Assembly: GCA_034661035.1 (NCBI GenBank) | Contig: JAYEKM010000008.1 | Coordinates: 11,677 to 75,676, forward strand | DNA: 64,000 nt | DNA from: Patescibacteria group bacterium | GTDB taxonomy: Bacteria > Patescibacteriota > Minisyncoccia > Phycocordibacterales > UBA12079 | Direction of reading: 5' to 3' | Part shown: positions 6,002 through 60,328 of the stretch, in pieces | How the letters are laid out: every line of letters starts with the position of its first letter | Numbering within the stretch: position 1 is the stretch's first letter | Notes under the pieces: model-generated | Told to the model about the DNA's origin: nothing | The model's database searches: none | What the model saw: the letters and a program-made list of their open reading frames with translations, nothing else | Position numbers and translations under genes: made by a program

Positions 6002-6180
6002 ATAAACAACATTATAACTTATCTTAAGAACTGCGCAAATTTTTTACTCGGAATACAAGATTAGGTCACTCTCATGGATATTTATTTCCCCACCCAATGT
6101 GGGTCATAAATATCTCATTCCCTTGACCTCCACTCGGCTGTTCCGACTTCGCTTTGCTTCGTCGGGCTTCGCACAGCCTT

Positions 6181-6321
<141 letters not shown>

Positions 6322-7824: not shown

Positions 7825-8235
7825 ATGAAAATATTTATAATTTCTAGCAAGAATTTTTACGAAAAAATTCCTGAAATAAAAGAACAGTTGGAAAAAAATG
7901 GAAATATTATTTCTTTACCTAATTGTTTTGATGCCCCTGAAACTGAAGCCAAATATAGGGATTTAGGAAAAAAAGAACACTCTAAGTGGAAATCTGAGAT
8001 GATTTGTCATAGTGTAGATGTAATCAAGGATAATAATGCCGTCTTAGTCTTAAATTTAGAAAAAAATGGTATTAAAAATTACATCGGAGGAGCTACATTT
8101 CTCGAAATGTATGATGCTTTCCGCCTTGGTAAAAAAATATTTCTATATAATCCTGTCCCCGAAGGGATGCTATATGATGAGATAATTGGTTTTAATCCAA
8201 TTGTTATAAACCAAGATTTAAATTTAATTAAATGA
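7825..8235 (+). CDS. hypothetical protein (possibly nucleoside 2-deoxyribosyltransferase-like Rossmann fold)
   Basis: 136 aa; stop overlaps the tsaD start by 4 nt; the fold guess is weak. Confidence 0.4.
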   Translation: MKIFIISSKNFYEKIPEIKEQLEKNGNIISLPNCFDAPETEAKYRDLGKKEHSKWKSEMICHSVDVIKDNNAVLVLNLEKNGIKNYIGGATFLEMYDAFRLGKKIFLYNPVPEGMLYDEIIGFNPIVINQDLNLIK

Positions 8236-9476
8236 AAATATTATCAATAGAAACTAGTTGTGACGAAACTGCTATCAGTATTTTAGAAGCTGAGGGTTCT
8301 TTCGGAGACAAAAACAACCCGCCCAAATTTAAGATTTTAGCTGATAATTTAATCTCTCAAATTGATATTCACAAAGAATACGGGGGTGTCTTCCCTGCTC
8401 TTGCAAAAAGAGAACATTCCAAAAATCTTATCCCCCTCTTAGCCAAATCACTGGAAGAAGCCTCTCTGGCTGTTCCAACTAATAATTCATTTGATAAAGG
8501 ACCAATCAAAAAAATTCTAGAAAGAGAACCCGAGCTAACTAAGTTATTTTTAGAATATATTCCAACCATTAAAATTCCTGAAATAGATGCTATCGCTGTT
8601 ACCCAAGGACCAGGACTTGAACCTGCTCTATGGGTTGGAATTAATTTTGCCAAAGCCCTATCTTTAGTTTGGAATAAACCACTTATTCCAGTTAATCATA
8701 TGGAAGGGCACCTCGTCGCTTCGCTCCTCAAGTCAAAAGTCAAAAGTCAAAAGTCAAAAGTAATTAAATTTCCTGCCATTGGACTACTAATATCTGGCGG
8801 GCATACAGAACTTATATTAATAAAAAAATGGGGTCAATATGAAAAAATTGGTCAAACCTTGGACGATGCGGTAGGTGAAGCTTTTGATAAAGTAGCTAGA
8901 ATGATGGATCTGCCCTACCCTGGCGGACCAGAAATTTCTAAACTAGCTCAAACAAATAGAAACTACACTTCCGGAGGTCCGACCTCCGGAAGTGTAGAGA
9001 TTGGACCTCCACAGGTTAAATTACCAAGGCCTATGTTAAACACCAATGATTTCAATTTTTCATTTTCTGGTTTGAAAACAGCCGTCTTATATCTAATCAA
9101 AAATCTAAAAAAAGAAAACAGTTGGGAAGAATTACCGATCGAAGTCAAACAAAAAATTGCACTTGAATTTGAAGACGCTGTGATTGAAATTTTGCTTAAA
9201 AAAACCAGGACTGCGATTGAAAAATATAATGCTAAAACATTAATCTTAGGAGGTGGTGTTGTTGCTAACTCTCAAATCCGCCAAACCTTCCAATCACTTG
9301 GAGGTCCAACCTCCAAGTTAGAAGTTTCGATGCCAGAAATAGAATTTTCAACCGATAATGCTGTGATGATTGGCATTGCTGGTTATTTTAGATATCTTCA
9401 GCAAAAAGAAAAAGGTCAGTTGCAAACTGCAACCGACCTTCTTGAACTCCCAGCTGATGGAAATTTAGAGTTCTAG
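8232..9476 (+). CDS. tsaD: tRNA N6-adenosine threonylcarbamoyltransferase TsaD (Kae1/YgjD)
   Basis: N-terminal SIETSCDETAISIL and metal-binding H..H region; carries unusual in-frame repeat insertions. Confidence 0.9.
   Translation: MKILSIETSCDETAISILEAEGSFGDKNNPPKFKILADNLISQIDIHKEYGGVFPALAKREHSKNLIPLLAKSLEEASLAVPTNNSFDKGPIKKILEREPELTKLFLEYIPTIKIPEIDAIAVTQGPGLEPALWVGINFAKALSLVWNKPLIPVNHMEGHLVASLLKSKVKSQKSKVIKFPAIGLLISGGHTELILIKKWGQYEKIGQTLDDAVGEAFDKVARMMDLPYPGGPEISKLAQTNRNYTSGGPTSGSVEIGPPQVKLPRPMLNTNDFNFSFSGLKTAVLYLIKNLKKENSWEELPIEVKQKIALEFEDAVIEILLKKTRTAIEKYNAKTLILGGGVVANSQIRQTFQSLGGPTSKLEVSMPEIEFSTDNAVMIGIAGYFRYLQQKEKGQLQTATDLLELPADGNLEF
8730..8762 (+). repeat. heptanucleotide tandem repeat (AAGTCAA)x4.7 inside tsaD
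   Basis: aagtcaa aagtcaa aagtcaa aagtcaa aagta encodes KSKVKSQKSKV. Confidence 0.9.
8963..8997. repeat. 35-bp perfect GC-rich palindrome inside the tsaD coding sequence
   Basis: CTACACTTCCGGAGGTC-C-GACCTCCGGAAGTGTAG encodes ..TSGGPTSGSV.. Confidence 0.9.
9297..9317. repeat. 21-bp perfect palindrome inside tsaD, same core as 8963
   Basis: CTTGGAGGTCCAACCTCCAAG encodes LGGPTSK; core GGAGGTCCRACCTCC. Confidence 0.9.
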
Positions 9477-11960: not shown

Positions 11961-12671
11961 ATGTTAAAAGAAACAACTATTTTTTATACCATCATAGGAG
12001 GATTACTCCCTGTACTTATTTGGCTTTGGTTTTGGTTAAGAGAAGATAAACTTCACCCAGAACCACGTAAATATATTTTTTTGGCTTTCATCTTCGGAAT
12101 AATTTCAGCCTTATTAGTCCTACCTGTAGAAGAATTCCTTGCAAAATTCTTACCAGTAGCTGGGATAATCCCAATCATTGTCTTTTCCTTTGCTGAAGAG
12201 ATATTTAAGTATTTTGGGGCTTATTTTAGCTCTTTAAGAAAGAAATATATGGATGAACCTATTGATGCTGTCATTTATATGATAACAATAGCCCTTGGAT
12301 TCGCTGCTTTAGAAAATACATTATTCTTGATGCACTCAATAAAAATAACAGGGGGTGATATTTCTCAGGCCTTCTTAGTAGGTAATATGAGATTCATCGG
12401 TGCTACCCTACTTCACACTATTTCGTCTGGTGTTATTGGTTTATTCATAGCTCTATCTTTTTACAAAAGACAAGCCCTTAAAAAAAGATATCTGCTAACA
12501 GGTATAACTCTTTCCGTTGCATTGCATAGTTTTTTTAATTTTTTTATAATTAAAGCAAAGGGAGGTGAAATGTTCTTCATGTTCATAATGATTTGGATAG
12601 TTGCTATTTTATTAATATTCCTTTTCGAGGTTGTTAAAAAAATAAAAAGAAAAAAACGGTTGGCTAAGTAA
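11961..12671 (+). CDS. PrsW-family intramembrane metalloprotease
   Basis: Multi-TM protein with motifs AEEIFKY (EExxK), GFAALEN (GFAxxEN) and LLHTISSG (His). Confidence 0.55.
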   Translation: MLKETTIFYTIIGGLLPVLIWLWFWLREDKLHPEPRKYIFLAFIFGIISALLVLPVEEFLAKFLPVAGIIPIIVFSFAEEIFKYFGAYFSSLRKKYMDEPIDAVIYMITIALGFAALENTLFLMHSIKITGGDISQAFLVGNMRFIGATLLHTISSGVIGLFIALSFYKRQALKKRYLLTGITLSVALHSFFNFFIIKAKGGEMFFMFIMIWIVAILLIFLFEVVKKIKRKKRLAK

Positions 12672-12735
12672 ATCAAATCGTCATAAAAACACATTATTAT
12701 AATCTTTTTTTATAAATACTCATTAAAAAAATAAT

Positions 12736-13191
12736 ATGAAATCATTTTTTGACAAATTAACAGGAACTGTTGATGTAGAACAAGAACCTGAAAACTTCAC
12801 TAATCTGAAGGTAAATGATGAGAGTCAACAGGATGAAAAATCATCTACATGGGAAGAAGAGGAAAACGAAGGAGAACTCTCAGTCGATGTCTATGACGAT
12901 AAAGATCAAATAGTCGTTAAAACCATGGTGGCTGGAGTAAGGCCAGAAGATTTGGACATATCTATCACAAGAGACATGGTTATTATCAAAGGAGTTCGTT
13001 CAGAAGAAAAGGAAATTTCTAAAAATGATTATTACCACCAAGAACTATATTGGGGTTCTTTCACAAGAACCATTATGCTACCAACAGAAATTGATATAGA
13101 GGAATCAAAAGCTACTGAAAAGTATGGACTACTGATATTAGAATTACCTAAAATAGACAAAGAAAGAAAAACCAAACTAATAGTGAAATAA
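12736..13191 (+). CDS. Hsp20/alpha-crystallin small heat shock protein
   Basis: Alpha-crystallin domain ending GLLILELPK; acidic N-terminus. Confidence 0.85.
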   Translation: MKSFFDKLTGTVDVEQEPENFTNLKVNDESQQDEKSSTWEEEENEGELSVDVYDDKDQIVVKTMVAGVRPEDLDISITRDMVIIKGVRSEEKEISKNDYYHQELYWGSFTRTIMLPTEIDIEESKATEKYGLLILELPKIDKERKTKLIVK

Positions 13192-13197
13192 AAAAAG

Positions 13198-13228
13198 AGG
13201 TTGTATTTATACAACCTCTTTTTTTATC
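13198..13228. terminator. bidirectional terminator between hsp20 (+) and mltG (-)
   Basis: AGAGGTTGTAT-TT-ATACAACCTCT flanked by an A-run and a T-run. Confidence 0.7.
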
Positions 13229-13236
13229 TAAAAACT

Positions 13237-14310
13237 TTAATACAAATACTGACGTTTATTACTTTTATGCTGATCAAAATCAACAGCATAATGCATATTC
13301 CCATAATCATCTGATAGATAAAAGAGATAATCGGAACCAACTGGTGTAACTGTCGCTAACAGTGACCATAAACTTGGATTGGCAATCGGTCCTATTGGAA
13401 GGCCTTTATTAGTGTACGTATTATAAGGAGATTCAACCTTTAAATCTTCTAAACTCAGCTGATAAGTGTTTTTTCCTATAATATAAGGAAAGACTGCGTC
13501 AACTTGAAGAGGCATACCAATCTCAATTCTCTTCCATAAAATTCCAGCTATCACCCTCTTAGATTTCAAGGTCCTAGCTTCTTTTTCTAAGATAGAAGCC
13601 ATAATTACAATGTCCTTTATATCCATACCTGAAGCTTCTATTTGCTCAGAAATCTCTTCAATTTTATTATAAAAATTTTCTTTCATGGTAGTGATAACAG
13701 CTTCTGGTGTAACTGTAGGTAAAAAATAATAGGTATCAGGGAATAAAAAACCTTCTTCAGCTTGAGCCACTTCTATAAATTCTTCCTTATCAAATTCTGG
13801 GAATTTATCATTAAGTAAATTTGCCATATCAAAAATAGTTAAACCTTCCACAAACATTATTTTCGTCGGAGTAATACCATAAATAGCAGAAGTAGTTCTC
13901 CATAAAACTTTAACTACTGAGCATCTTTCTTCAAAAAAATAATCCCCAGCCATAACACTACGGTCGTTCATCAATACTTTAGCTAAACCACTAAACACTG
14001 AAGCTGATTTAATTACGTGTTTTTCCTCTAGAACAGCAGCAACCTCATTAAGGGTCATCCCTTCTTCAACTCTAATAATAGACCCCACAGGAAAATCGCC
14101 TGGAGATAATATTAAAGAAAAATAAAGGAAAGACAATGACACAACACTAAAAGCTGTTAAGTTAGTTCTCAGCTTAATCTTGGGCAGTTTCCTAAGAACA
14201 GAAATTTTTATGTAATTTAGGAAAGTCGCTACCTTACGGAAACTTCCGATAAAAAAGTTTTTCAAAAGAATTTTACTATTCCTTGGATTATAGTTATTTA
14301 GGTTAAACAT
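13237..14310 (-). CDS. mltG: endolytic murein transglycosylase MltG (YceG family)
   Basis: N-terminal TM segment, EEGFLFPDTYYF motif and YceG-like fold. Confidence 0.8.
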   Translation of the reverse strand: MFNLNNYNPRNSKILLKNFFIGSFRKVATFLNYIKISVLRKLPKIKLRTNLTAFSVVSLSFLYFSLILSPGDFPVGSIIRVEEGMTLNEVAAVLEEKHVIKSASVFSGLAKVLMNDRSVMAGDYFFEERCSVVKVLWRTTSAIYGITPTKIMFVEGLTIFDMANLLNDKFPEFDKEEFIEVAQAEEGFLFPDTYYFLPTVTPEAVITTMKENFYNKIEEISEQIEASGMDIKDIVIMASILEKEARTLKSKRVIAGILWKRIEIGMPLQVDAVFPYIIGKNTYQLSLEDLKVESPYNTYTNKGLPIGPIANPSLWSLLATVTPVGSDYLFYLSDDYGNMHYAVDFDQHKSNKRQYLY

Positions 14311-16779: not shown

Positions 16780-19161
16780 TCAAATAACTATATTAAAAAT
16801 CTTGTTTTTTATATAAATACTCTTTTTAACCTCTTGACCGTCCAACCACTTTTGAACCCGTAAATCTGAGAGGACTTTGTCTTTTACCTCCTTCTCGGAA
16901 TCCTCGTCCCTAACCTCAATTTCAGCCCTTACTTTACCGTTTATTTGAACAGCTACTGTGTAAAGATCATCCTTAGCTAGCTTCTCGTCATAGGCTGGCC
17001 ACTTTTCCAGATGGATAGAAGAATCATGACCTAGGCTATTCCAAATCTCTTCTGTTATGTGAGGTGTAAATGGTGATAATATCCTCAAAAACTTTTCAAA
17101 ATCTTTTTGAGAGATCTGAGAAGTTTTTACCACCTTCATGAATTTCATCATTTCAGAAACAGCCGTATTATATTTCAATCCATTGATATCATTTCCAACT
17201 TTTCTGATAGTCTTATGTAAAACGTTCTGAACTTCTTGAGAAGTCGTTTCTTCTAATTTTTCTCTTTGATAAAAAACTTTTTCCAAAAACCGATAGACTC
17301 CAACAATATTATCTTCATTCCACATTACTTCATCCTCCAAAGGTGTTGCAAAAAGTATGTAAGTTCTAACCGAGTCTGCACCAAATCTTTCTACCATCTC
17401 ATTAGGATTCACTACATTCCCTTTTGACTTAGACATTTTCTTCCCTTCTCCATCTAGAATCATCCCTTGATGTCTTAATTTCAAAAAAGGTTCATTGAAA
17501 TCTAACAATCCAATTTTGTTCATCGCTTTAACAAAAAATCGTGAAAATAAAAGATGCATATAAGTATGTTCTGCTCCACCAATATACAAATCAACCGGCA
17601 ACCATTTTTTACGATCTTCCGAACAAAATTCTCTTTCATTATGAACATCAGGATATCTCAAAAAATACCATGACGAATCTACAAAAGTATCCATCGTATC
17701 AAACTCTGGTGTCCAACCTTTCCCAAAAATTTTTTCTGTCCTCTCTCTCAATTCTTTTGATTTTTCTAGAGGTGATTTTCCTGATGGAATAAAGTCAACG
17801 TCGGTTGGCAATAACCAAGGTAAGTGTTCTTCTGGAATTAATTTAGCTTCTCCTTCTGGTGAATAAACAATTGGAATTGGGCAACCCCAATACCTTTGAC
17901 GAGACATAGACCAATCCCTAAGGCGATAATTAGAAGTCGATTCTCCTTCTACAAATTCTGTAATTTTTTGTTTAGCTTCTTCAGAAGTCATTCCATCAAA
18001 TTGAGTAGAGTTTACCAAAACTCCATCACCAGAATAAGATTCTTCTTTTATATCTCCACCAGAGATAACTTCTCTTATATCCAAACCAAATTTGGTAGCA
18101 AATTCAAAATCTCTTTCATCATGAGCGGGGACAGCCATGATTGCCCCAGTTCCATAACCACTTAAAACATAATCAGCAATAAAAATAGGGATTTCTTCTT
18201 TATTAGCTGGATTAGTAGCAAAAATTCCCTCTAACTTTACTCCTGTTTTATCTTTAGCTTCAATTCTATCCATTTCAGTCTTACTCTGAGCTTCTTTGAT
18301 GTATTTTTCTACTTCTTCCCAATTCTCAACTTTTTCTTTTAAATCTTGAACTAATTGGTGCTCAGGAGCCAATACCATATAAGTCGCTCCGAATAATGTA
18401 TCTGGGCGAGTAGTAAATACCTCTATTTCTTTTTCAACTTTAGACTTTGGACTTTGGACTTTAAAGACTATTTTTGCCCCTTCTGACTTTCCAATCCAAT
18501 TTTTTTGATTTTTTTTCGTATGTTCTGGCCAATCAACAATATCTAAATCATTAATCAGGTCGTCAGCAAATTCTGTAATCTTAAAAAACCAACTTGGAAT
18601 TTCTTTTTGAACAATTTGAGTTCCGCAACGCTCACATTCCCCACCTACTACTTGTTCATTAGCAATACCAGTCTGGCAAGATTCACACCAATTAATTTTA
18701 GAAGTTTTTTTATAAACTAAATCATTTTCAAAAAATTTAATAAACAACCATTGTGTCCACTTATAATATTCTGGTTCATAAGTAACTACTTTTTCATCAA
18801 AATCATATCGTAAACCTAAAAGCTTCATTTGCTTTATATAATTATCAATATTTTTAGCTGTGCTGATCTCAGGGGCAATCCCTGTTTTAATTGCATAGTT
18901 TTCAGCCGGCAAACCAAAAGCATCAAAGCCTTGTGGATGCAAAACATTAAAACCTTGCATGGTCTTAAAACGGGTAAACACGTCACTGGCTGTATAAGAT
19001 TCAGTATGCCCCATATGAAGACCATCTCCTGATGGATAAGGAAACATATCCAACATATAAAATTTTTTCTTAGTATTGTCCTTATCTATATTAACAACTT
19101 GGTTGTCTTCCCAAATCTTTTGCCATTTTTTCTCTATTTTTTTATGGTTATACTTTTCCAT
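16780..19161 (-). CDS. leuS: leucyl-tRNA synthetase
   Basis: MFPYPSGDGLHMGH (HIGH), KMSKSKGNV and the LeuRS-specific GFDAFGLPAE. Confidence 0.95.
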   Translation of the reverse strand: MEKYNHKKIEKKWQKIWEDNQVVNIDKDNTKKKFYMLDMFPYPSGDGLHMGHTESYTASDVFTRFKTMQGFNVLHPQGFDAFGLPAENYAIKTGIAPEISTAKNIDNYIKQMKLLGLRYDFDEKVVTYEPEYYKWTQWLFIKFFENDLVYKKTSKINWCESCQTGIANEQVVGGECERCGTQIVQKEIPSWFFKITEFADDLINDLDIVDWPEHTKKNQKNWIGKSEGAKIVFKVQSPKSKVEKEIEVFTTRPDTLFGATYMVLAPEHQLVQDLKEKVENWEEVEKYIKEAQSKTEMDRIEAKDKTGVKLEGIFATNPANKEEIPIFIADYVLSGYGTGAIMAVPAHDERDFEFATKFGLDIREVISGGDIKEESYSGDGVLVNSTQFDGMTSEEAKQKITEFVEGESTSNYRLRDWSMSRQRYWGCPIPIVYSPEGEAKLIPEEHLPWLLPTDVDFIPSGKSPLEKSKELRERTEKIFGKGWTPEFDTMDTFVDSSWYFLRYPDVHNEREFCSEDRKKWLPVDLYIGGAEHTYMHLLFSRFFVKAMNKIGLLDFNEPFLKLRHQGMILDGEGKKMSKSKGNVVNPNEMVERFGADSVRTYILFATPLEDEVMWNEDNIVGVYRFLEKVFYQREKLEETTSQEVQNVLHKTIRKVGNDINGLKYNTAVSEMMKFMKVVKTSQISQKDFEKFLRILSPFTPHITEEIWNSLGHDSSIHLEKWPAYDEKLAKDDLYTVAVQINGKVRAEIEVRDEDSEKEVKDKVLSDLRVQKWLDGQEVKKSIYIKNKIFNIVI
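18438..18465 (-). repeat. heptanucleotide tandem repeat (AAAGTCC/AAAGTCT) inside leuS
   Basis: + strand ctttaga ctttgga ctttgga ctttaaa; on the coding strand it encodes FKVQSPKSKVE. Same unit family as the tsaD repeat. Confidence 0.85.
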
Positions 19162-26431: not shown

Positions 26432-26755
26432 TGATAATAATTTCGATATTTCAATCGATAAACTAAAACATTTTTCAAACTGTTCTTTAGATAAATACTT
26501 TAGCTCTAAAGCTAAATAAAGCATCGATCTTACCTCTCCACAGGAACCTTTTGCTATAAATAAAAAATGCTTAAACTCTCTATCCCCCTTCCTCTCAAAT
26601 CCTTCTGCAATATTGTTCATTACTGAAACAGAAGCTCTCTGAATCTGGTCTCTAAAGCTATAGTCCTTAGAATCTGAAAAACTTTTGTAGATACTGATCG
26701 TTAGGGTTCTTGCTTTCTGCCATGATATCATATCTTCAAATTTTTCAATTTTCAT
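26411..26755 (-). CDS. four-helix-bundle protein (23S rRNA intervening-sequence protein family)
   Basis: MKIEKFEDMISWQKARTL..NNIAEGFERKGDREFKHFLFIAKGSCGEVRSMLYLALEL pattern; start trimmed to Met26 of the track ORF. Confidence 0.75.
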   Translation of the reverse strand: MKIEKFEDMISWQKARTLTISIYKSFSDSKDYSFRDQIQRASVSVMNNIAEGFERKGDREFKHFLFIAKGSCGEVRSMLYLALELKYLSKEQFEKCFSLSIEISKLLSGFIKTL

Positions 26756-26800
26756 ACTTTTTACTTTATAGACTTTATGAACTTTCGACTGTAACATCCA
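26756..26800. repeat. IVS-like repeat arm (right), inverted relative to 26389
   Basis: tactttttACTTTATAGACTTTATGAACTTTCGACtgtaac. Confidence 0.6.
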
Positions 26801-27227
26801 TTTTATCAAGTTTACCTTTTTCTGCAACAAAAGACTTATCCTTCCTCAATTTTAAAAGAATGAAATAAGCCAGCAACCAACCCAACATATCCATTAAAAT
26901 ATCCAGACTAGTGTCTAAGTTAAAGTTAGATTGATAAATTGAAGCCTTTGCTAAATATTCAAAAATTTCCCACAAAATACCTACTGTTATTACAAAAAAT
27001 AAGGATGTATAGAATATAGAAAGTTTTTCTTTAATTCTTCTAAAATATTTCGATAGAAAAAAAATATAATAAGAAAGCAAAGCCACCCAAAAACCACCAA
27101 GAAAGTGCATAATTATGTCAAACCACCAAAATTTCCAATATAGGAAAAAGTGGCTAGCAAGAATATTTAAAATAAAGATTATATAAATAAAAACAACCAG
27201 AAAAATTGAAAAAGTTTTTTTGCTCAT
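26775..27227 (-). CDS. hypothetical small membrane protein (about 150 aa, 4 TM)
   Basis: Start trimmed to MSKKTFSIFLVV; the conserved 5' module sits directly upstream. Confidence 0.5.
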   Translation of the reverse strand: MSKKTFSIFLVVFIYIIFILNILASHFFLYWKFWWFDIIMHFLGGFWVALLSYYIFFLSKYFRRIKEKLSIFYTSLFFVITVGILWEIFEYLAKASIYQSNFNLDTSLDILMDMLGWLLAYFILLKLRKDKSFVAEKGKLDKMDVTVESS

Positions 27228-27252
27228 ATTTACCCTGTTAAATAAGATTTGA
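27228..27252 (-). promoter_or_regulatory. conserved 5' UTR/promoter module abutting the start codon of the membrane gene
   Basis: Minus strand reads TCAAATCTTATTTAACAGGGTAAAT-ATG. Confidence 0.5.
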
Positions 27253-27433
27253 TTCTTTTTTTTAATAAGTACCTCTTCATAATGTGTTTTTAAATTACTG
27301 AACAAACTTTCCTTTTACCGCAACCATCAAATCTTAACTTTAAATTTTTTATATAATATAATTTATATAAAACTTTTTATCCTTAGCTGATTATAGCATA
27401 TATACATAGAACATTTTCCGCAAGATTTAAAGT

Positions 27434-28544: not shown

Positions 28545-28660
28545 GAGTAAAAAGTCTATAAAGTCCTTAAAGTAGAAAGTAAAAAAAATGGGAAATTGAC
28601 TTCGCCAATTTCCAATTTTTTTACTTTATAGACTTTCGACTTTATAAACTTTCGGCTCTT
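28545..28660. repeat. ORF-less IVS-like palindromic element with a central bidirectional terminator
   Basis: Arms aaaaGTCTATAAAGTCCTTAAAGTAGAAAGT / ACTTTATAGACTTTCGACTTTATAAACTTTCGG; centre A8-GGAAATTG-ACTTCGC-CAATTTCC-T7. Confidence 0.65.
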
Positions 28661-31751: not shown

Positions 31752-31860
31752 AATAATTGTTTAGTCTAAAGTCCTTAATATCCATAAAGCCGAAAGTGAA
31801 AAATTTGCTTTGCAAATTTTTCTTACCTTATGGGCTTTTGACTTCATAGACTTTCGACTA
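31752..31860. repeat. second ORF-less IVS-like palindromic element between the RND and MFP genes
   Basis: Arms tAGTCTAAAGTCCTTAATATCCATAAAGCCGAAAGTG / GACTTCATAGACTTTCGACT; centre AAATTTGC-TTT-GCAAATTT. Confidence 0.6.
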
Positions 31861-33460
31861 TTTGTCCTTCTTTCAATCCTCTCGCATCTATAACAATTTC
31901 CATATCAGCTGTGACACCTTCTTTTATAATTATTTTTTCTCCTAAGATAGGACCTAAAATTACAGGATGAGAAATCAATTTATTTCCTTCACCCACTGTA
32001 AAAACGGTTGTGTCAGCAGATCCAATCTTTAGAGCTGAAATCGGAACAGAAAGTTCTGTTAATTCTTCTTCAACTTCTTGAAAAATTCTTTCAACCAACA
32101 AAGAAACTGACTGTCCATTAGTCAAAACCATATCTGAATCTTTTAAGGTAACCTCCACTTTTATCTTTTTTGTTTTGTTGTCTATGGCAGGAGCGATATT
32201 TTTAACTTCTCCTTGCCATTTAGAACCAACTAAAACCTTAGAACCAACTTCAACATCATCTCTATCTTCTTCTGTAATATAGGTAACTACCTCTAAAGAT
32301 TTATTATTGGCAATACTTACTACAGGAGTAAAAGCTGAAACAAAATCACCCTTTTCTAAATTAAGGATATTAATAGTTCCACTAATAGAGGCTCTAATAA
32401 TTGTTTTCTCTAAATTAGCGTAAGCTGATTGCAGACCTGCTTCAGCTTGTTTTAATTGAGCTTCTGCTGAGATAACGTCTTCTGATCTCCCCCCTGTTTG
32501 AGCCTGTTCATAATTCAACTCAGCAATTTCAAAGTTTGAGTAAGCCCCATTCAAACTATTCTTAGCTGTAGACAAAGCTGTTGCAGATGTGTTGATCACA
32601 GTTCTGGTTGTACTTATATTAGTTTTCCATGTAGTGATAGTTGTTTCTGATAAGTTTGAAGTCGGAGTTAGGATATTTACAGCCAAAGCTAATTTATCAA
32701 GAAAAACTCTAATGGAATTAATATTTGACTTTCTTTTATCCAATTCCCCTATTAAATCATCTTCTACATCAAATGTAGTTAGTGTATCTGACCACTCCTC
32801 TAACATTTCTTCTAAAAGCAATCTTCTCCACTCAAGATCAATTTCTAATTGAGAATCAACCACAGGGAAAATTACTTGTGGATCATCTCCTCGGGCGTCT
32901 CTAAACATAGCGTCCATTTTATTTCTAATAGAGTCATCAGCTTTAGCAAAAGAATCGTTCAAAGTGTTAACAACTGATATTTTGGTTTCAGTTAAAGTAT
33001 TTTGAACATTATCTAGAGTGGTTTTAAGAATAGAAGTCTGTTCATCTCTACCTCCTTTTTTTATCTTATCTAAACCTGCTTGAGCAACTTCAACACTGGC
33101 CTCTGCTTGAGTCACAGCTGATTTTTGTGTCCAATTGTCTAATTCACCAATAATTTGATTAGACCAAACAGTATCGCCTAATTTTTTGTAAACCCCAATT
33201 ACTTCTCCTGATATTTGAGAATAAATATTAGCAGAAGATTGTGACTGAACTTTTCCTAATAAAGGCAATGGATCTTTATTCAAAGAAAGATTCCTAACTG
33301 ACATAGTAGCAACTTGTCTAACATCAGAAGAATCAATATCTTGATCCCCATTTTCCTGAACAACCAATCTCTGATAAAAGATAATTGTTAAAATAGCTAA
33401 AATAGTGAAAACTATAATAACTTTATTACGACCTAACCCTTTATTTCTTAAATCTAACAT
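31844..33460 (-). CDS. RND efflux periplasmic adaptor (membrane fusion protein, HlyD/AcrA family)
   Basis: N-terminal TM, long coiled-coil, C-terminal beta-barrel-like region. Start trimmed to ATG 33460; the longer ORF would translate the GC palindrome. Confidence 0.65.
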   Translation of the reverse strand: MLDLRNKGLGRNKVIIVFTILAILTIIFYQRLVVQENGDQDIDSSDVRQVATMSVRNLSLNKDPLPLLGKVQSQSSANIYSQISGEVIGVYKKLGDTVWSNQIIGELDNWTQKSAVTQAEASVEVAQAGLDKIKKGGRDEQTSILKTTLDNVQNTLTETKISVVNTLNDSFAKADDSIRNKMDAMFRDARGDDPQVIFPVVDSQLEIDLEWRRLLLEEMLEEWSDTLTTFDVEDDLIGELDKRKSNINSIRVFLDKLALAVNILTPTSNLSETTITTWKTNISTTRTVINTSATALSTAKNSLNGAYSNFEIAELNYEQAQTGGRSEDVISAEAQLKQAEAGLQSAYANLEKTIIRASISGTINILNLEKGDFVSAFTPVVSIANNKSLEVVTYITEEDRDDVEVGSKVLVGSKWQGEVKNIAPAIDNKTKKIKVEVTLKDSDMVLTNGQSVSLLVERIFQEVEEELTELSVPISALKIGSADTTVFTVGEGNKLISHPVILGPILGEKIIIKEGVTADMEIVIDARGLKEGQIVESL

Positions 33461-33475
33461 ATTTTTCTTGTTCGC

Positions 33476-33495
33476 CCTGCCTGCCGGCAGGCAGG
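33476..33495. promoter_or_regulatory. 20-bp perfect GC-rich palindrome 16 nt upstream of the MFP start (candidate operator or 5' hairpin)
   Basis: CCTGCCTGCCGGCAGGCAGG with outer TTCGCCC/GGGCGAA; about 80% GC in a roughly 30% GC genome. Confidence 0.45.
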
Positions 33496-33608
33496 CTTGG
33501 GCGAAATTATATCTACCTTGCAAAAATTACTGGGGTATTATACCAAAAATAAGTGAAAAAGATAGATTTTCTCCTAAAAAATGGTAAAATAACACTTACA
33601 TAAACAAT

Positions 33609-55372: not shown

Positions 55373-55900
55373 CTAGTCCCGCGAAGGCGCTTTTTGTTTT
55401 TCTAGCTTCTTTAATTCACTCCTCACATCTTCCAAATACTGAATTGCTCTTTTCCAACCGCAAGCTTTTCTTAACAGAAAAGAAGTTTTCTTTCTATTAG
55501 GACTTAAAGCAACCTTGAATTTATTTTTGTTTTCTAAATATTTAACTAAACTAGCGAAATCTCCATCACTCGTTATTAAAATAGCATTATCATATTCTAA
55601 CAACAAATCAACAGTTGTTAATGTTAAGTCAACGTCAACATTACCTTTTGGTTTCCCATTACTTTTTTTTGAAATTTCTTTAAAAGAAATTTCAAAGCCA
55701 GCATTTCTTAACAAGGAATAAAATTTTTCATTTTCTTTTATGTACCCTATAAACCAAAAAGCTTTAACAACTTTATACTTATCTTTTAAATAAATTCTTA
55801 ATTTAAAAATATCTACCGCCCAACCATCATCTTTCGTACCAAGATACAAGTTCTGAGCATCTATAAAAGCATAATTATTTTCTTTGTTTTTATTTTTCAT
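55373..55900 (-). CDS. NYN-domain (LabA-like PIN-fold) protein, paralogue 1
   Basis: NNYAFIDAQNL..NVDVDLTL..ILITSDGDFASLV; the C-terminus and stop sit in a GC-rich hairpin. Confidence 0.7.
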   Translation of the reverse strand: MKNKNKENNYAFIDAQNLYLGTKDDGWAVDIFKLRIYLKDKYKVVKAFWFIGYIKENEKFYSLLRNAGFEISFKEISKKSNGKPKGNVDVDLTLTTVDLLLEYDNAILITSDGDFASLVKYLENKNKFKVALSPNRKKTSFLLRKACGWKRAIQYLEDVRSELKKLEKQKAPSRD

Positions 55901-57086
55901 ATTTTTTAAGAGCCTCTTCTACAGAATTTGCTACAATAAGCCCCTCCCCTTTTTCAAACTCTTTCTTACTTTCCATTAATTCTGAATGGAAAATATCTTC
56001 TATCAAAAGTTTTTCTAAATTATCTAAAGTATTTTGAATGGAAAATTGTTTTGATTTTTCGTAAGCGTTTTGGATAATCCCTTGTCTAAAAAGATCATTC
56101 TTTAAGACTTTAAAAATAGCTTTTTTCAAAGCTTCTTTGTCATTAGGCTCAACCAAAATCCCTTCTACATTATTTTCAATCAATTCAGGTAAAGAACAGA
56201 TATTAGTAGTAATCACGGGCAAACCTAAAGTCATTGCTTCCACAGTATCAAAAGAAAAACTTTCCCAATTAGTATTGAAAACAAAAATATCAGCCAATTG
56301 TTTTTGTTTTAATAATTCTTCTCTAGTTAGTTGCCCTGTCAAAATAACTTTTCCCTGCAAACCTAACCTTTCGATTGTTTCTTCTAATTCTTCTTTTTGA
56401 GGGCCACCTCCAACAATAACTAATTTAACTTCTGGAATTTCTTGCAAAATATTCGGCATCGTTTCAATCAACACTTTAAAGCCTTTCCAAGGTACAAGTC
56501 TCCCCACAGATAACAACACATTACTTTCGACTTTATGGACTTTATGAACTTTTAACTCGTTTATTTCTATCCCGTTATAAATTACCTTAATTTTTTCAGG
56601 AGCAATCCCCCAATTCACAATAACTTGTTTAAAGTAATGACTAGGAACAATAATTTTATCAGCCTGTTTAACTACACAAAATTGAATTTTCTTAAAAAAC
56701 CGAACTTTTAAGCCATAGTTATTTCTCGTAGAGAAAGTATCTAAATCATCTTTTACACCAAACCTCTGAACCCCTTGCTCCCATGCATAATCACCAGCAA
56801 TCCTAATGAAAAACTTTTTCCTTAAAAATTTGTTAGCTAACATAGTCGGCAAACCAACACTCACTGGATCTTGAGCATAAATAACATCAACCCCCTTAGC
56901 TCTTTTAAGAATTTTGAAAAAATAAATAATATGACGAATAATTTTTGGTAAATTCCTAACTTCACCAAAAGAAAGGACCACCACTTCAATCCCCCTTTTT
57001 GGTAATTCATCAAAAAGAAGCTTTGAATAAGTAGCCGGTCCACCAATATCCGGCGGGTATATTCCTGTTGTAATTAAAATTCTCAT
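55890..57086 (-). CDS. family 4 glycosyltransferase
   Basis: FNTNWESFSFDTVEAMTLGLPVITT; AAGGAG SD. Confidence 0.75.
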   Translation of the reverse strand: MRILITTGIYPPDIGGPATYSKLLFDELPKRGIEVVVLSFGEVRNLPKIIRHIIYFFKILKRAKGVDVIYAQDPVSVGLPTMLANKFLRKKFFIRIAGDYAWEQGVQRFGVKDDLDTFSTRNNYGLKVRFFKKIQFCVVKQADKIIVPSHYFKQVIVNWGIAPEKIKVIYNGIEINELKVHKVHKVESNVLLSVGRLVPWKGFKVLIETMPNILQEIPEVKLVIVGGGPQKEELEETIERLGLQGKVILTGQLTREELLKQKQLADIFVFNTNWESFSFDTVEAMTLGLPVITTNICSLPELIENNVEGILVEPNDKEALKKAIFKVLKNDLFRQGIIQNAYEKSKQFSIQNTLDNLEKLLIEDIFHSELMESKKEFEKGEGLIVANSVEEALKKYEK

Positions 57087-58881: not shown

Positions 58882-60328
58882 CTAATTTAGTAGCAAAAAC
58901 AACTCCGGTGATGGCTAAAGAAACAATTCCCATCAAAGAAATCGTCCACTTATTGATAAGAGGTTCATCAAAATCATCAACAGGGACTTGTTGCTGAAGA
59001 TCAGATGAAGTTGCTGTCTCTGTTTTATCTTCTAGAATTACCTCTCCATCTTCTTCTGGCTCAACCTCTTCAATTAATGGTTTTGTGGCTTTATTAATAT
59101 TTGCTACTTGAGGAACAACAGGAATCGGAACAACGATTTTTTGATCTATCACAGACTCTTTCCTATAATCGAAAGCTATACTACCATTTGGGTATAACAA
59201 TTGAATATCGTCACCTTCTTTTGGAAAAAGATTAGTAACATGACTTGATAATTTTAATTGATTATCAGCTAACATTATTGTATTTTTGGGAAATGTCCAA
59301 AAATTATCACCGACCTTTAATCTCCACCAAGATAAGTTTAATTCATACTGCGAAGGATTATTAATGTTTACAAAAGAATTGGAATCGTCAAACAAAACAT
59401 CTTTGATAAAAACTCCTGAAGAAATTACTTTTGTTTTAACCCTGTCCATAGCCGAATGTTTCCCTGAAGAAACCTCTAGGGTAATTAAATATTCACCTGG
59501 ATATTGAAAAGCGTGTAAAACATTTTGACCAGCAACCCTTGAACCATCACCAAAAGACCAACTGTACTTAGCATTCTCAATAGGTTGGTTTTCTAATCCA
59601 AGAGATTCCCCTTTAAACATAAAGTCTGCCCCTGCAATAGGAATATCTTGAAAAGAAATAATATGAGCCTTAATCTGACTAACAAAAAGAATACTACCAG
59701 ACCCTAGATCTAAACCTTGATCTTCTTGCTCACTAGGAGGAATTATTTCATCGTTTTCCTCAACAGGTTCATCTGGTTGGTTTCCTCCATTTGTACAAGC
59801 TGGAGTAGGAGTACCGGATTGCCAAGTCGAATCAATTTTTTGTAGTGAGTCACCATCACCGTTAGCTCCCCATTCTGATAAGTAATCTACACTGTCAACA
59901 TCAATCAATTCATCATCCCTTAAAATTAAACCTTCGCCAGAATTAGAAAGAGAAAAAGCTGAATCAAAAACTAAACCAGAAAAATTAGGATAATCTACCT
60001 CAAATTTTTCAAAGTTATCAATAATCAATGCATAAGTTTTAGTAGGTAAAACAAGAGAATCCCCTTCAATAATTGACTTTATTCTATGGTTAGTTTCTGC
60101 CTCAAACACCTTCCAGCCTGAAAGATCAACATCCTCTGTAGTTGTATTATAAATTTCAATCCATTCCCTCCCACTATCGCTACCTTCTAAATTGTACATT
60201 ACTTCTGTTATTTCAATTTGGGAAAAAACAAAACTAGGAGACAAAAATAAAACAGACAAAGCAGTTACTAAAAGTAACTGCTTTGTCTGTTTTAAATTTT
60301 TATTTATTCTCATCTGGCTTCTTAACAT
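58874..60328 (-). CDS. secreted lamin-tail-domain (LTD) + PKD-domain protein with C-terminal membrane anchor
   Basis: Signal peptide; LTD ITEVMYNLEGSDSGREWIEIYN..LSGW; PKD YSWSFGDGS..HAFQYPGEYLITLEV; C-terminal TM WTISLMGIVSLAITGVVF. Confidence 0.7.
   Translation of the reverse strand: MLRSQMRINKNLKQTKQLLLVTALSVLFLSPSFVFSQIEITEVMYNLEGSDSGREWIEIYNTTTEDVDLSGWKVFEAETNHRIKSIIEGDSLVLPTKTYALIIDNFEKFEVDYPNFSGLVFDSAFSLSNSGEGLILRDDELIDVDSVDYLSEWGANGDGDSLQKIDSTWQSGTPTPACTNGGNQPDEPVEENDEIIPPSEQEDQGLDLGSGSILFVSQIKAHIISFQDIPIAGADFMFKGESLGLENQPIENAKYSWSFGDGSRVAGQNVLHAFQYPGEYLITLEVSSGKHSAMDRVKTKVISSGVFIKDVLFDDSNSFVNINNPSQYELNLSWWRLKVGDNFWTFPKNTIMLADNQLKLSSHVTNLFPKEGDDIQLLYPNGSIAFDYRKESVIDQKIVVPIPVVPQVANINKATKPLIEEVEPEEDGEVILEDKTETATSSDLQQQVPVDDFDEPLINKWTISLMGIVSLAITGVVFATKLDE

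Follow-up and report, generated by a model that had tools for sequence, protein, structure and literature searches.

In-frame AAAGTC heptamer arrays in tsaD and leuS of a Patescibacteria genome: possible members of a dispersed palindromic repeat family

Cyanobacterial short tandemly repeated repetitive (STRR) heptamers are dispersed direct repeats. The DNA uptake sequences (DUS) of Neisseria and the uptake signal sequences (USS) of Pasteurellaceae are short motifs that lie in genes and, as inverted pairs, in terminators, and they are shaped by transformation and recombination. Among long-unit simple repeats, heptanucleotides are reported to be the commonest class in most prokaryotic genomes, with polymerase slippage put forward as the explanation (Mrazek et al. 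2007, as cited in PMC4679880). Direct repeats of the heptamer TAACTGA are found in Beggiatoaceae, Cyanobacteria, and Bacteroidetes, with 169 sets in the whole BOGUAY draft genome, and repeat-controlled surface proteins serve as examples of phase variation (PMC4679880). Palindromic repeats lie in frame in Rickettsia housekeeping genes at fold-compatible positions, and the terminator-like intergenic repeats include SPRITE, BOX, and RUP of pneumococcus as well as repetitive extragenic palindromes (REP) and bacterial interspersed mosaic elements (BIME) (PMC10969869). Here I describe a 64-kb stretch of contig JAYEKM010000008.1, called the window below, from an uncultivated Patescibacteria genome of the Paceibacteria type. 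The stretch is AT-rich (GC 0.26-0.36, in a genome of 31% GC), and two of its genes, tsaD and leuS, each carry a short tandem array of a 7-nt unit inside the open reading frame (ORF). The analysis covered these 64 kb of the genome, and contigs of relatives served for comparison (L and P numbers denote loci and proteins of relatives).

The features are collected in Table 1. Arrays in the window were detected with Tandem Repeats Finder (TRF). In tsaD, TRF reported a period of 7, 4.6 copies, and 100% matches (score 64), and this is the only perfect heptamer array of at least three copies in the window. The host ORF is TsaD by PF00814 (E=1e-79) and by solved TsaD structures (E=1e-66). In leuS, TRF reported the unit ACTTTGG at 18437-18462 with a period of 7, 3.7 copies, and 94% matches; the sense strand reads AAAGTCC AAAGTCC AAAGTCT AAAGTTG when the final G is included. 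A sequence-only reading of the window had proposed two in-frame tracts with a shared unit of AAAGTC plus one base, and TRF and translation bear this out. It was right about the start, the unit, and the peptide of the tsaD tract, which ends at 8761 after 4.6 copies and not at 8762 after 4.7, and about the unit series, the peptide, and the minus strand of the leuS tract, which lies at 18436-18462 and not at 18438-18465.

Table 1. Positions of the AAAGTC-type repeats and their two main host genes in the 64-kb window
Feature	Position	Strand	Description
tsaD ORF	8232..9476	+	414 aa; hosts the heptanucleotide tract
5′ flank of the tsaD tract	8712..8729	+	CTCGTCGCTTCGCTCCTC (L-V-A-S-L-L); flank and tract match L001 exactly over 50 nt
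tsaD tract	8730..8761	+	(AAGTCAA)x4.6, that is, AAAGTC plus 1 spacer base; encodes K167-V177 (KSKVKSQKSKV)
leuS ORF	16780..19161	-	793 aa; hosts the second tract
leuS tract	18436..18462	-	AAAGTCC AAAGTCC AAAGTCT AAAGTT; encodes K234-V242 (KVQSPKSKV)
AAAGT array at a gene junction	26738..26790	-	7/9/9 nt spacing; nhmmer E=2.8e-4
Full palindromic element	28546..28656		AAAGT array, A-run, terminator-like hairpin, T-run, ACTTT array
Full palindromic element	31762..31866		TAGTCTAAAGTCC...GAAAAATTTGCtttGCAAATTTTTC...GACTTTCGACTA; between the HlyD-like and AcrB genes
In-frame element-arm copy in a GT4 glycosyltransferase	56520..56557	-	AAAGTTCAT AAAGTCCAT AAAGTCG AAAGTA

Both tracts are real and in frame, and they far exceed what chance would give. 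At a lag of 7 nt, matches run to at most 25 in the window, while 200 first-order Markov simulations of the window gave a mean of 9.0 and a maximum of 14. The word AAAGTCNAAAGTC, with at most one mismatch, occurs 10 times against 0.97 expected, and none of 100 shuffles reached 10. Each tract has at least three head-to-tail copies, which is what defines a simple sequence repeat (SSR). An assembly artefact is excluded because the same arrays are found in independent assemblies of relatives.

Are the tracts private to this genome? I aligned 34 TsaDs and, for 158 loci with intact loops from metagenomes and genomes, examined the loop that NHMEGH and SGGHT enclose. The tsaD tract is identical in L001 (75% amino acid identity), has the same length with three substitutions in L002 and L004 (79%), and is degenerate at the same length in L003 (60%). 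The 15-mer GTCGCTTCGCTCCTC is confined to tract-bearing tsaD orthologues. For LeuS, the hairpin from WIGKSEG to TTRPDT was found in 86 homologues. It is 17 residues long in 44 of them, and about 11 proteins of 60-100% identity have a 21-residue hairpin with VKSQKSKV or a near variant of it (VQSPKSKV in the window, VKSQKSEV in P0262). The DNA of five tract-bearing leuS genes (L004, L087, L177, L178, and L179) is (AAAGTCA)3-4, and the leuS tract of the window departs from this array in having C, C, and T as the last base of three successive units. The window LeuS is 100% identical to P0178, a protein of an NCBI Patescibacteria metagenome-assembled genome; exact look-ups of the window TsaD and LeuS found no record, none of the contigs compared was found to be of the same species, and the best relatives are 79% (TsaD) and 86% (LeuS) identical. 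Several close relatives have intact genes in which the tract is absent or decayed. Judged from these alignments, the tracts are old, and they are neither private nor recent expansions. The comparison of orthologues for KSKV inserts, which the sequence-only reading had proposed, finds them at the same codons in relatives of both proteins, and a recent expansion specific to this genome is not supported. The arrays are shared with relatives of 60-86% identity, the TsaD loop of the window has 38 residues, which is the modal length of its class in the 158 loci, and the leuS tract is 12 nt longer than the tract-less form, no multiple of 7.

The lengths of the tracts obey a frame rule. No variation in length was seen among the tract-bearing alleles of either TsaD or LeuS. 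Where sister TsaDs differ, they differ by seven residues, that is, by 21 nt or three units: P0006 has PKSK-NIKFP and P0007 has PKSKTQSSKTEKITFP, and P0018 has HKSKIINFP and P0022 has SESKTQSQKSKEIEFP. In DNA, L085 has AAGTCAAAA followed directly by ATTATTAAT, and the window has AAGTCAAAA, three units of GTCAAAA, and then GTAATTAAA, which is a clean 21-nt difference; L087 agrees with the window. No out-of-frame state was found in the 158 intact loops. It had been foreseen that a 7-nt unit keeps the frame only in multiples of three, and the sister TsaDs agree with this. In contrast to tsaD, leuS shows no whole-unit change between relatives; its 17- and 21-residue alleles are the empty and occupied forms of one site.

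A unit that is not a multiple of three inside an ORF, together with a perfect tract in tsaD, is the classical layout of a phase-variable contingency locus, in which frequent slippage by one unit would switch tsaD or leuS off and on in the population. This is hard to believe here. TsaD and LeuS are core translation genes and are normally essential, there are only about four units, and the frameshifted state is not seen. The tract-bearing LeuS P0198 is found without any change on 22 contigs, and no second sequence falls into its 90% cluster. Of the hallmarks of such loci, the unit is present, and length heterogeneity among the relatives and a dispensable host gene, typically one for a surface or restriction-modification function, are not; the suspected mutational hotspot leaves no sign among the relatives.

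Is AAAGTC restricted to the two genes? All hexamers were compared for their excess of same-strand pairs 6-12 nt apart. It is AAAGTC that heads the list in the window, with 7 such pairs where 0.18 are expected (P~1e-9), and it is also first in 184 kb of close relatives with tsaD masked (13 pairs against 0.29, P~1e-16), while it is unremarkable in distant Paceibacteria. The hexamer as such is not enriched in the window (57 occurrences against 55 expected). Its clusters are spaced 7 and 9 nt, and the composite AAAGTYCAT AAAGTYCAT AAAGTCR AAAGTA is repeated at unrelated sites and in different genomes. Most clusters are intergenic and form inverted pairs that flank terminator-like hairpins. Four full elements share one consensus, two in the window and two in L002 (3666-3772 and 6161-6258), and they fold as single long hairpins with z from -5.1 to -9.4. 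The guess of a genome-wide motif was therefore a good one, and the last four rows of Table 1 are the further copies in the window beyond tsaD and leuS.

A profile built from the four full elements was searched with nhmmer, whose E-values are rough because the sequence is repetitive and the search was run without bias correction. Matches were obtained in the window, L002, L008, L010, L085, L086, and L087. The leuS tract matches the left arm of the profile (E=0.004), and leuS tracts start with TAGTC, as do the ends of the palindromic elements. The copy in the GT4 glycosyltransferase matches profile positions 1-38 (E=4.4e-6) and encodes KVHKVHKVES (residues 179-188) at the junction of two Pfam domains. 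Loci that carry a tsaD or leuS tract (the window, L002, and L087) contain three or four more AAAGTC clusters, while tract-less loci have none or one. At the valS-prsW and yceG-DUF8128 junctions, elements are present in L002 and absent in the window.

The elements reach into neighboring genes. The element at 28546 lies between convergent genes, gives the AcrB-family protein its C-terminus KVYKVESL*, and folds at -33.8 kcal/mol (z -6.4); the element at 31762 gives the HlyD-like protein its C-terminus QIVESL* and folds at -28.5 kcal/mol (z -5.1). The array at 26738 forms the end of the ORF 26775..27305 (..TVESS*) and reaches the ATG at 26755 of a gene of the 23S-rRNA-IVP family. The automatic call extends the ORF of the IVP-family gene through the array to a TTG start, and the ATG is the likelier start. 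The three unrelated ORF ends (at 26775, 28626, and 31844) read ..VES[LS]* on GTCGAAAGT(C/T)(T/C)AT(A/G)A of the AAAGT array, which is the arm of a full element for the AcrB and HlyD-like ends. Therefore, the repeat provides the C-terminus and the stop codon.

Alternatively, the two tracts might be independent local microsatellites that grew by slippage from chance seeds, the shared unit reflecting only AT-rich DNA and Lys-rich codons (AAA-GTC, AAG-TCA), without any family. Heptanucleotides are reported as the commonest long-unit repeats, with slippage proposed (PMC4679880), sister TsaDs differ by 21-nt indels, and (AAAGTCA)n arrays occur sporadically in unrelated viral contigs and in spurious cyanobacterial ORFs. 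However, AAAGTC leads all hexamers in self-clustering both in the window and in the tsaD-masked relatives, the mixed 7/9-nt arrays and the composite recur at unrelated sites in different genomes, a genic tract goes together with arrays elsewhere in the same genome, and the leuS difference of 12 nt does not fit the unit. This explanation is already disfavored, and I consider it distinctly unlikely. A search with the peptide (KSKVKSQ)6 found short spurious ORFs only, several of them cyanobacterial; such matches mean that (AAAGTCA)n arrays exist elsewhere and say nothing about protein families. A link to phages was rejected, since only 11 viral contigs carry at least 3.7 copies of AAAGTCA, with mixed GC (0.29-0.63) and mostly in non-coding DNA.

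I favor, with somewhat better than even confidence, the reading that both tracts are tolerated in-frame members of a clade-specific dispersed AAAGTC family, and that they are passengers and not switches. The family has a 7-nt register (AAAGTC+N) and a 9-nt register (AAAGTC+NNN). Its usual form is a terminator-like palindrome about 105 nt long, which lies at a gene junction and runs in the order [TA]GTC-N-AAAGTCC... array, A-run, hairpin, T-run, and ...GGACTTT-N-GAC[TA] array; such elements often provide the last codons and the stop codon of the upstream gene. Solo arrays would have become fixed in frame within tolerant loops of conserved proteins, where a heptamer array is read through all three frames. 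As is plain from the sequence, none of the sense frames of AAAGTCA contains a stop codon, so that it is translated as a linker rich in K, S, V, and Q, and because its reverse complement contains TGA, AAAGTCA arrays can survive in the sense orientation only. The length would change only by frame-keeping events, in 21-nt steps through slippage or deletion between direct repeats, and the other changes would be point substitutions. The solo arrays presumably derive from the palindromic elements or share a cause with them, the peptide of the tract is probably neutral, and short patches may have spread between lineages by recombination.

The positions of the in-frame copies agree with tolerance. In the AlphaFold model of TsaD, which is of high confidence overall (mean pLDDT, the predicted local distance difference test score, 86.5; pTM, the predicted template modelling score, 0.83), only two segments fall below a pLDDT of 50. 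One of them, residues 168-175, belongs to the tract, for whose loop disorder is thus predicted. Relative to the solved TsaD structures, the tract is an insertion of 7-8 residues, and relative to Salmonella TsaD it is one of 7 residues. In LeuS, the tract adds four residues that fill a gap of the T. thermophilus / E. coli LeuS alignment just before TTRPDT, and it is probably the tip of a beta-hairpin, as known structures, and not a tool result, suggest. With the domain junction of the GT4 glycosyltransferase, all of these are structurally permissive positions. Some LeuS proteins of this clade have a NUDIX domain inserted in the synthetase, as in P0181/L175, P0198/L178, and many homologues of 940-1000 aa.

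The TsaD loop and the LeuS hairpin are occupied by arrays of other heptamers (AATTTTC, AAAGTTG, and AAAGTTT) in other lineages. In TsaD loops of other Paceibacteria, arrays were seen in L052/L154, L077, L161, L055, L132, L066, and L011, the last two having arrays in further TsaD loops too, and arrays of other heptamers were seen at the LeuS hairpin of P0182, P0253, P0259, and P0274. Example units at the two sites are (AATTTTC)x4, (AATTTTA), (AAAGTTT), (AAAGTTG)x4, and (CCAAATT)x3.7. Palindromes are also found there. The TsaD loop of L127 has an in-frame palindrome of about 56 nt with the arms GAAGTCAGACTTT and AAAGTCTGACTTC, that of L088 has a CCTACCGACAGGTAGG hairpin between TTTTCAA repeats, and that of L090 is also occupied by a long in-frame palindrome. 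The LeuS hairpin of P0233, P0234, and P0236 has a 10-residue insert, PRPYAVGGAG, which is apparently encoded by a palindrome.

Could it be the peptide that is selected? TsaD and LeuS both act on tRNA, and KSKVKSQKSKV is rich in Lys and conserved as a peptide in several lineages, so that a flexible positive loop might help the two enzymes hold tRNA. I think this very improbable. In other lineages, the other heptamer arrays encode hydrophobic peptides at both sites, FSIFNFQFS and ESLKLKVES at the TsaD loop and IFNFQFS and KSLKLKV at the LeuS hairpin. Moreover, a glycosyltransferase, several gene ends, and intergenic DNA carry the same arrays, close relatives manage without the tract, and the loop is predicted to be disordered.

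Several observations sit badly with a neutral passenger. The tract DNA is the best-conserved DNA of both genes, though decay would be expected of a neutral passenger. The 50-nt block of flank and tract is exact between the window and L001, the next longest run is 20 nt, and none of 2000 column permutations reached 50; in leuS, the longest exact match within the 2.4-kb gene is the tract in 7 of 10 pairs of tract-bearing genes. Each of the three substitutions in the leuS tract of the window affects the spacer base, one for each of the codon positions 1, 2, and 3, which hints at a constraint on AAAGTC itself. In neighbor-joining trees on core columns, the tract-bearing alleles are polyphyletic for TsaD and for LeuS, and the passenger reading leaves this unaccounted for. 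The window LeuS is sister to P0181, which is 87% identical and has no tract. Near the hairpin, the gene of P0181 (L175) is nearer to L084 than to the window, while over the whole gene it is nearer to the window than to L084, and this pattern suggests mosaicism around the leuS hairpin. The link between the solo arrays and the elements is also uneven: the tsaD tract matches the element profile marginally (E 0.04-0.24) and has no TAGTC lead-in, and the solo tsaD and leuS tracts have no hairpin (z +1.1 for the tsaD region). As for mobility, which would rest on the occupied and empty sites only, no clear target-site duplication was found at the elements, although TA is possible; TA flanks several elements, which is not diagnostic in AT-rich DNA. 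A transposase was looked for in about 47 ORFs within the first 50.5 kb and in the glycosyltransferase at 55890, and none was found there; roughly a dozen further ORFs of 100 aa or more lie between 50.5 and 64 kb.

These points raise the question of whether the arrays are a sequence-specific nucleic-acid signal that is kept by selection or molecular drive, so that the intragenic copies are maintained. Candidates would be iterated sites to which a DNA- or RNA-binding protein attaches, or a signal for DNA uptake or recombination, and they would spread between lineages by transformation and homologous recombination. The identical block, the leuS pairs, the spacer-only substitutions, the polyphyletic alleles, and the mosaic around the hairpin all speak for such a signal, and the inverted pairs at terminators recall those of the Neisseria uptake sequences by analogy. 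On the other hand, the hexamer is not over-represented, with arrays at about one per 10 kb, several close relatives keep intact genes with no tract or a decayed one, and the tract has no promoter-like site, no RNA structure, and no Rfam family. I regard a signal in this general sense as possible but unlikely, and the same holds for the candidates just named. A more specific version assumes that DNA-scavenging Patescibacteria recognize the arrays. Through transformation and the homologous recombination of short patches, these would pass between lineages and enter even essential genes, where they would be kept as DNA while being translated as harmless loops. This version would explain the conservation of the tracts, the discordance of the gene trees, and the lineage-specific heptamers at both loops; I consider it rather doubtful all the same.

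Other candidates were tried and dropped. No sigma-70-like site was found within positions 8500-9000 of the window, and, as read from the sequence, the antisense TTGACT words have no -10 partner at the proper spacing. An RNA structure around the tsaD tract was rejected, since the region is unstructured (z +1.1), and Rfam finds only three tRNAs in the window. Programmed frameshifting was dropped because tsaD is intact in frame and no alternative ORF follows. The flank CTCGTCGCTTCGCTCCTC is found in tsaD orthologues only and was rejected as a dispersed element.

The tsaD gene of the window also has two perfect in-frame palindromes. The one at 8963-8997 has 17-nt arms and a 1-nt loop (CTACACTTCCGGAGGTC C GACCTCCGGAAGTGTAG). 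It is a 35-nt palindrome that codes for residues ~244-256, and it matches a disordered TsaD loop, since the second segment with pLDDT below 50 is residues 249-258. The other, at 9296-9318, has 10-nt arms and a 3-nt loop. Both contain the core GGAGGTCCRACCTCC, which has five matches at no more than two mismatches against 0.12 expected, and relatives have other palindrome-like peptides at both loops, such as GGSTS..EVEPPQ and IWHSECQI. Another perfect in-frame palindrome, the GC-rich 20-mer CCTGCCTGCCGGCAGGCAGG, lies at 33476-33495 in the HlyD-like ORF (31844..33523, minus strand). With C or T at position 13, it occurs in 10 fetched loci, 9 of them distinct (L089 duplicates L010), whose GC spans 0.29-0.51. 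Most of the copies are intergenic, and one lies within an AAAGT element as a nested repeat (L086).

Perfect hairpins with a stem of at least 9 nt and a loop of at most 8 nt number 26 in the window against 3-9 in ten Markov controls. Many of them are bidirectional terminators with an A-run and a T-run between genes, and the hairpin at 60248-60294, with perfect 22-nt arms, lies at an ORF junction. The GC skew turns from plus to minus at about 12000-13300, where the gene orientation turns from plus to minus as well, and the genes converge near 13.2 kb. This switch may be the replication terminus. Since skew and gene orientation switch together, the orientation of the tracts is inseparable from that of genes and replication. 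A GC-rich stretch at 6130-6190 with repeated GCTTCG words (CGACTTCGCTTTGCTTCGTCGGGCTTCGC) adjoins tRNA-Val and has no Rfam match at the gathering threshold. The region 33600-63300 is devoted to glycan biosynthesis (NeuB, a CMP-sugar cytidylyltransferase, DegT, FdtA, several GT2, GT4, and GT11). GC falls to 0.25-0.29 at 40-48 kb, which may be acquired DNA.

Patescibacteria genomes are tiny and are assumed to be streamlined, yet dispersed repeats reach the core translation genes of this clade. The arrays show cleanly, in a natural setting, how the frame rule acts on coding repeats with a unit length not divisible by three, as steps of three units are the only ones seen. Alongside the Rickettsia palindromic elements, they would be a matching case from a second lineage with reduced genomes. 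If the conservation and the tree discordance reflect recombination or a recognized signal, the arrays would mark gene flow, or a specificity of uptake or binding, in bacteria not yet available in culture. In practice, alignments and gene calls can go astray at the tract loops and gene ends, as with TTG starts and VESL* C-termini.

How does this compare with known systems? The tracts share head-to-tail 7-nt units with prokaryotic heptanucleotide SSRs, for which slippage is the accepted cause of length change (PMC4679880). Other intragenic SSRs usually have a unit divisible by three, while here a 7-nt unit lies in two core genes, is orthologous across deep relatives, and changes in steps of three units only. 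Phase-variable contingency loci share the repeat of a non-multiple of three inside a reading frame, and differ from the present case, in which the genes are essential translation genes, the copy number is low, and the length is invariant among relatives. Like TAACTGA and STRR repeats, the AAAGTC arrays are built on one favored heptamer, whose hexamer core is first for close pairs, and they form short tandem sets at many sites, mostly intergenic beside genes; stop codons in one orientation limit the overlap with genes, and the phylogenetic distribution is patchy. The present case differs in that the spacer of the AAAGTC+N unit is free and a 9-nt register exists beside the 7-nt one, inverted pairs of arrays enclose hairpins, in-frame copies lie in essential genes, and there are about 6 sites in 64 kb as compared with 169 sets in the BOGUAY draft.

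The likeness to Rickettsia palindromic elements (RPEs) lies in a dispersed palindromic family with in-frame copies in unrelated housekeeping genes at fold-compatible positions. As for RPEs and miniature inverted-repeat transposable elements, there are dispersed consensus copies, occupied and empty orthologous sites, and permissive in-frame positions, and the full elements fold as palindromes, whereas the solo tsaD and leuS tracts do not. RPEs are whole insertions of about 150 bp that encode a conserved peptide, while tsaD and leuS hold solo arrays of 27-32 nt, at most one arm. With SPRITE, BOX, RUP, and REP/BIME, the full elements share a size of about 100 nt, a non-coding nature, a stem-loop like a rho-independent terminator, a place at gene junctions, and nested small repeats (L086); they differ in that the arms are tandem hexamer repeats and the host is a member of Patescibacteria, and a partner of the REP-associated tyrosine transposase (RAYT) or insertion sequence (IS) type was not identified in the window scan. 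AAAGTC resembles DUS and USS as a motif in genes and as inverted pairs at terminator-like sites, but the strong over-representation of uptake sequences is absent, as only the arrays are enriched. In the literature found, there is no description of coding palindromes or repeat elements in Parcubacteria or Patescibacteria.

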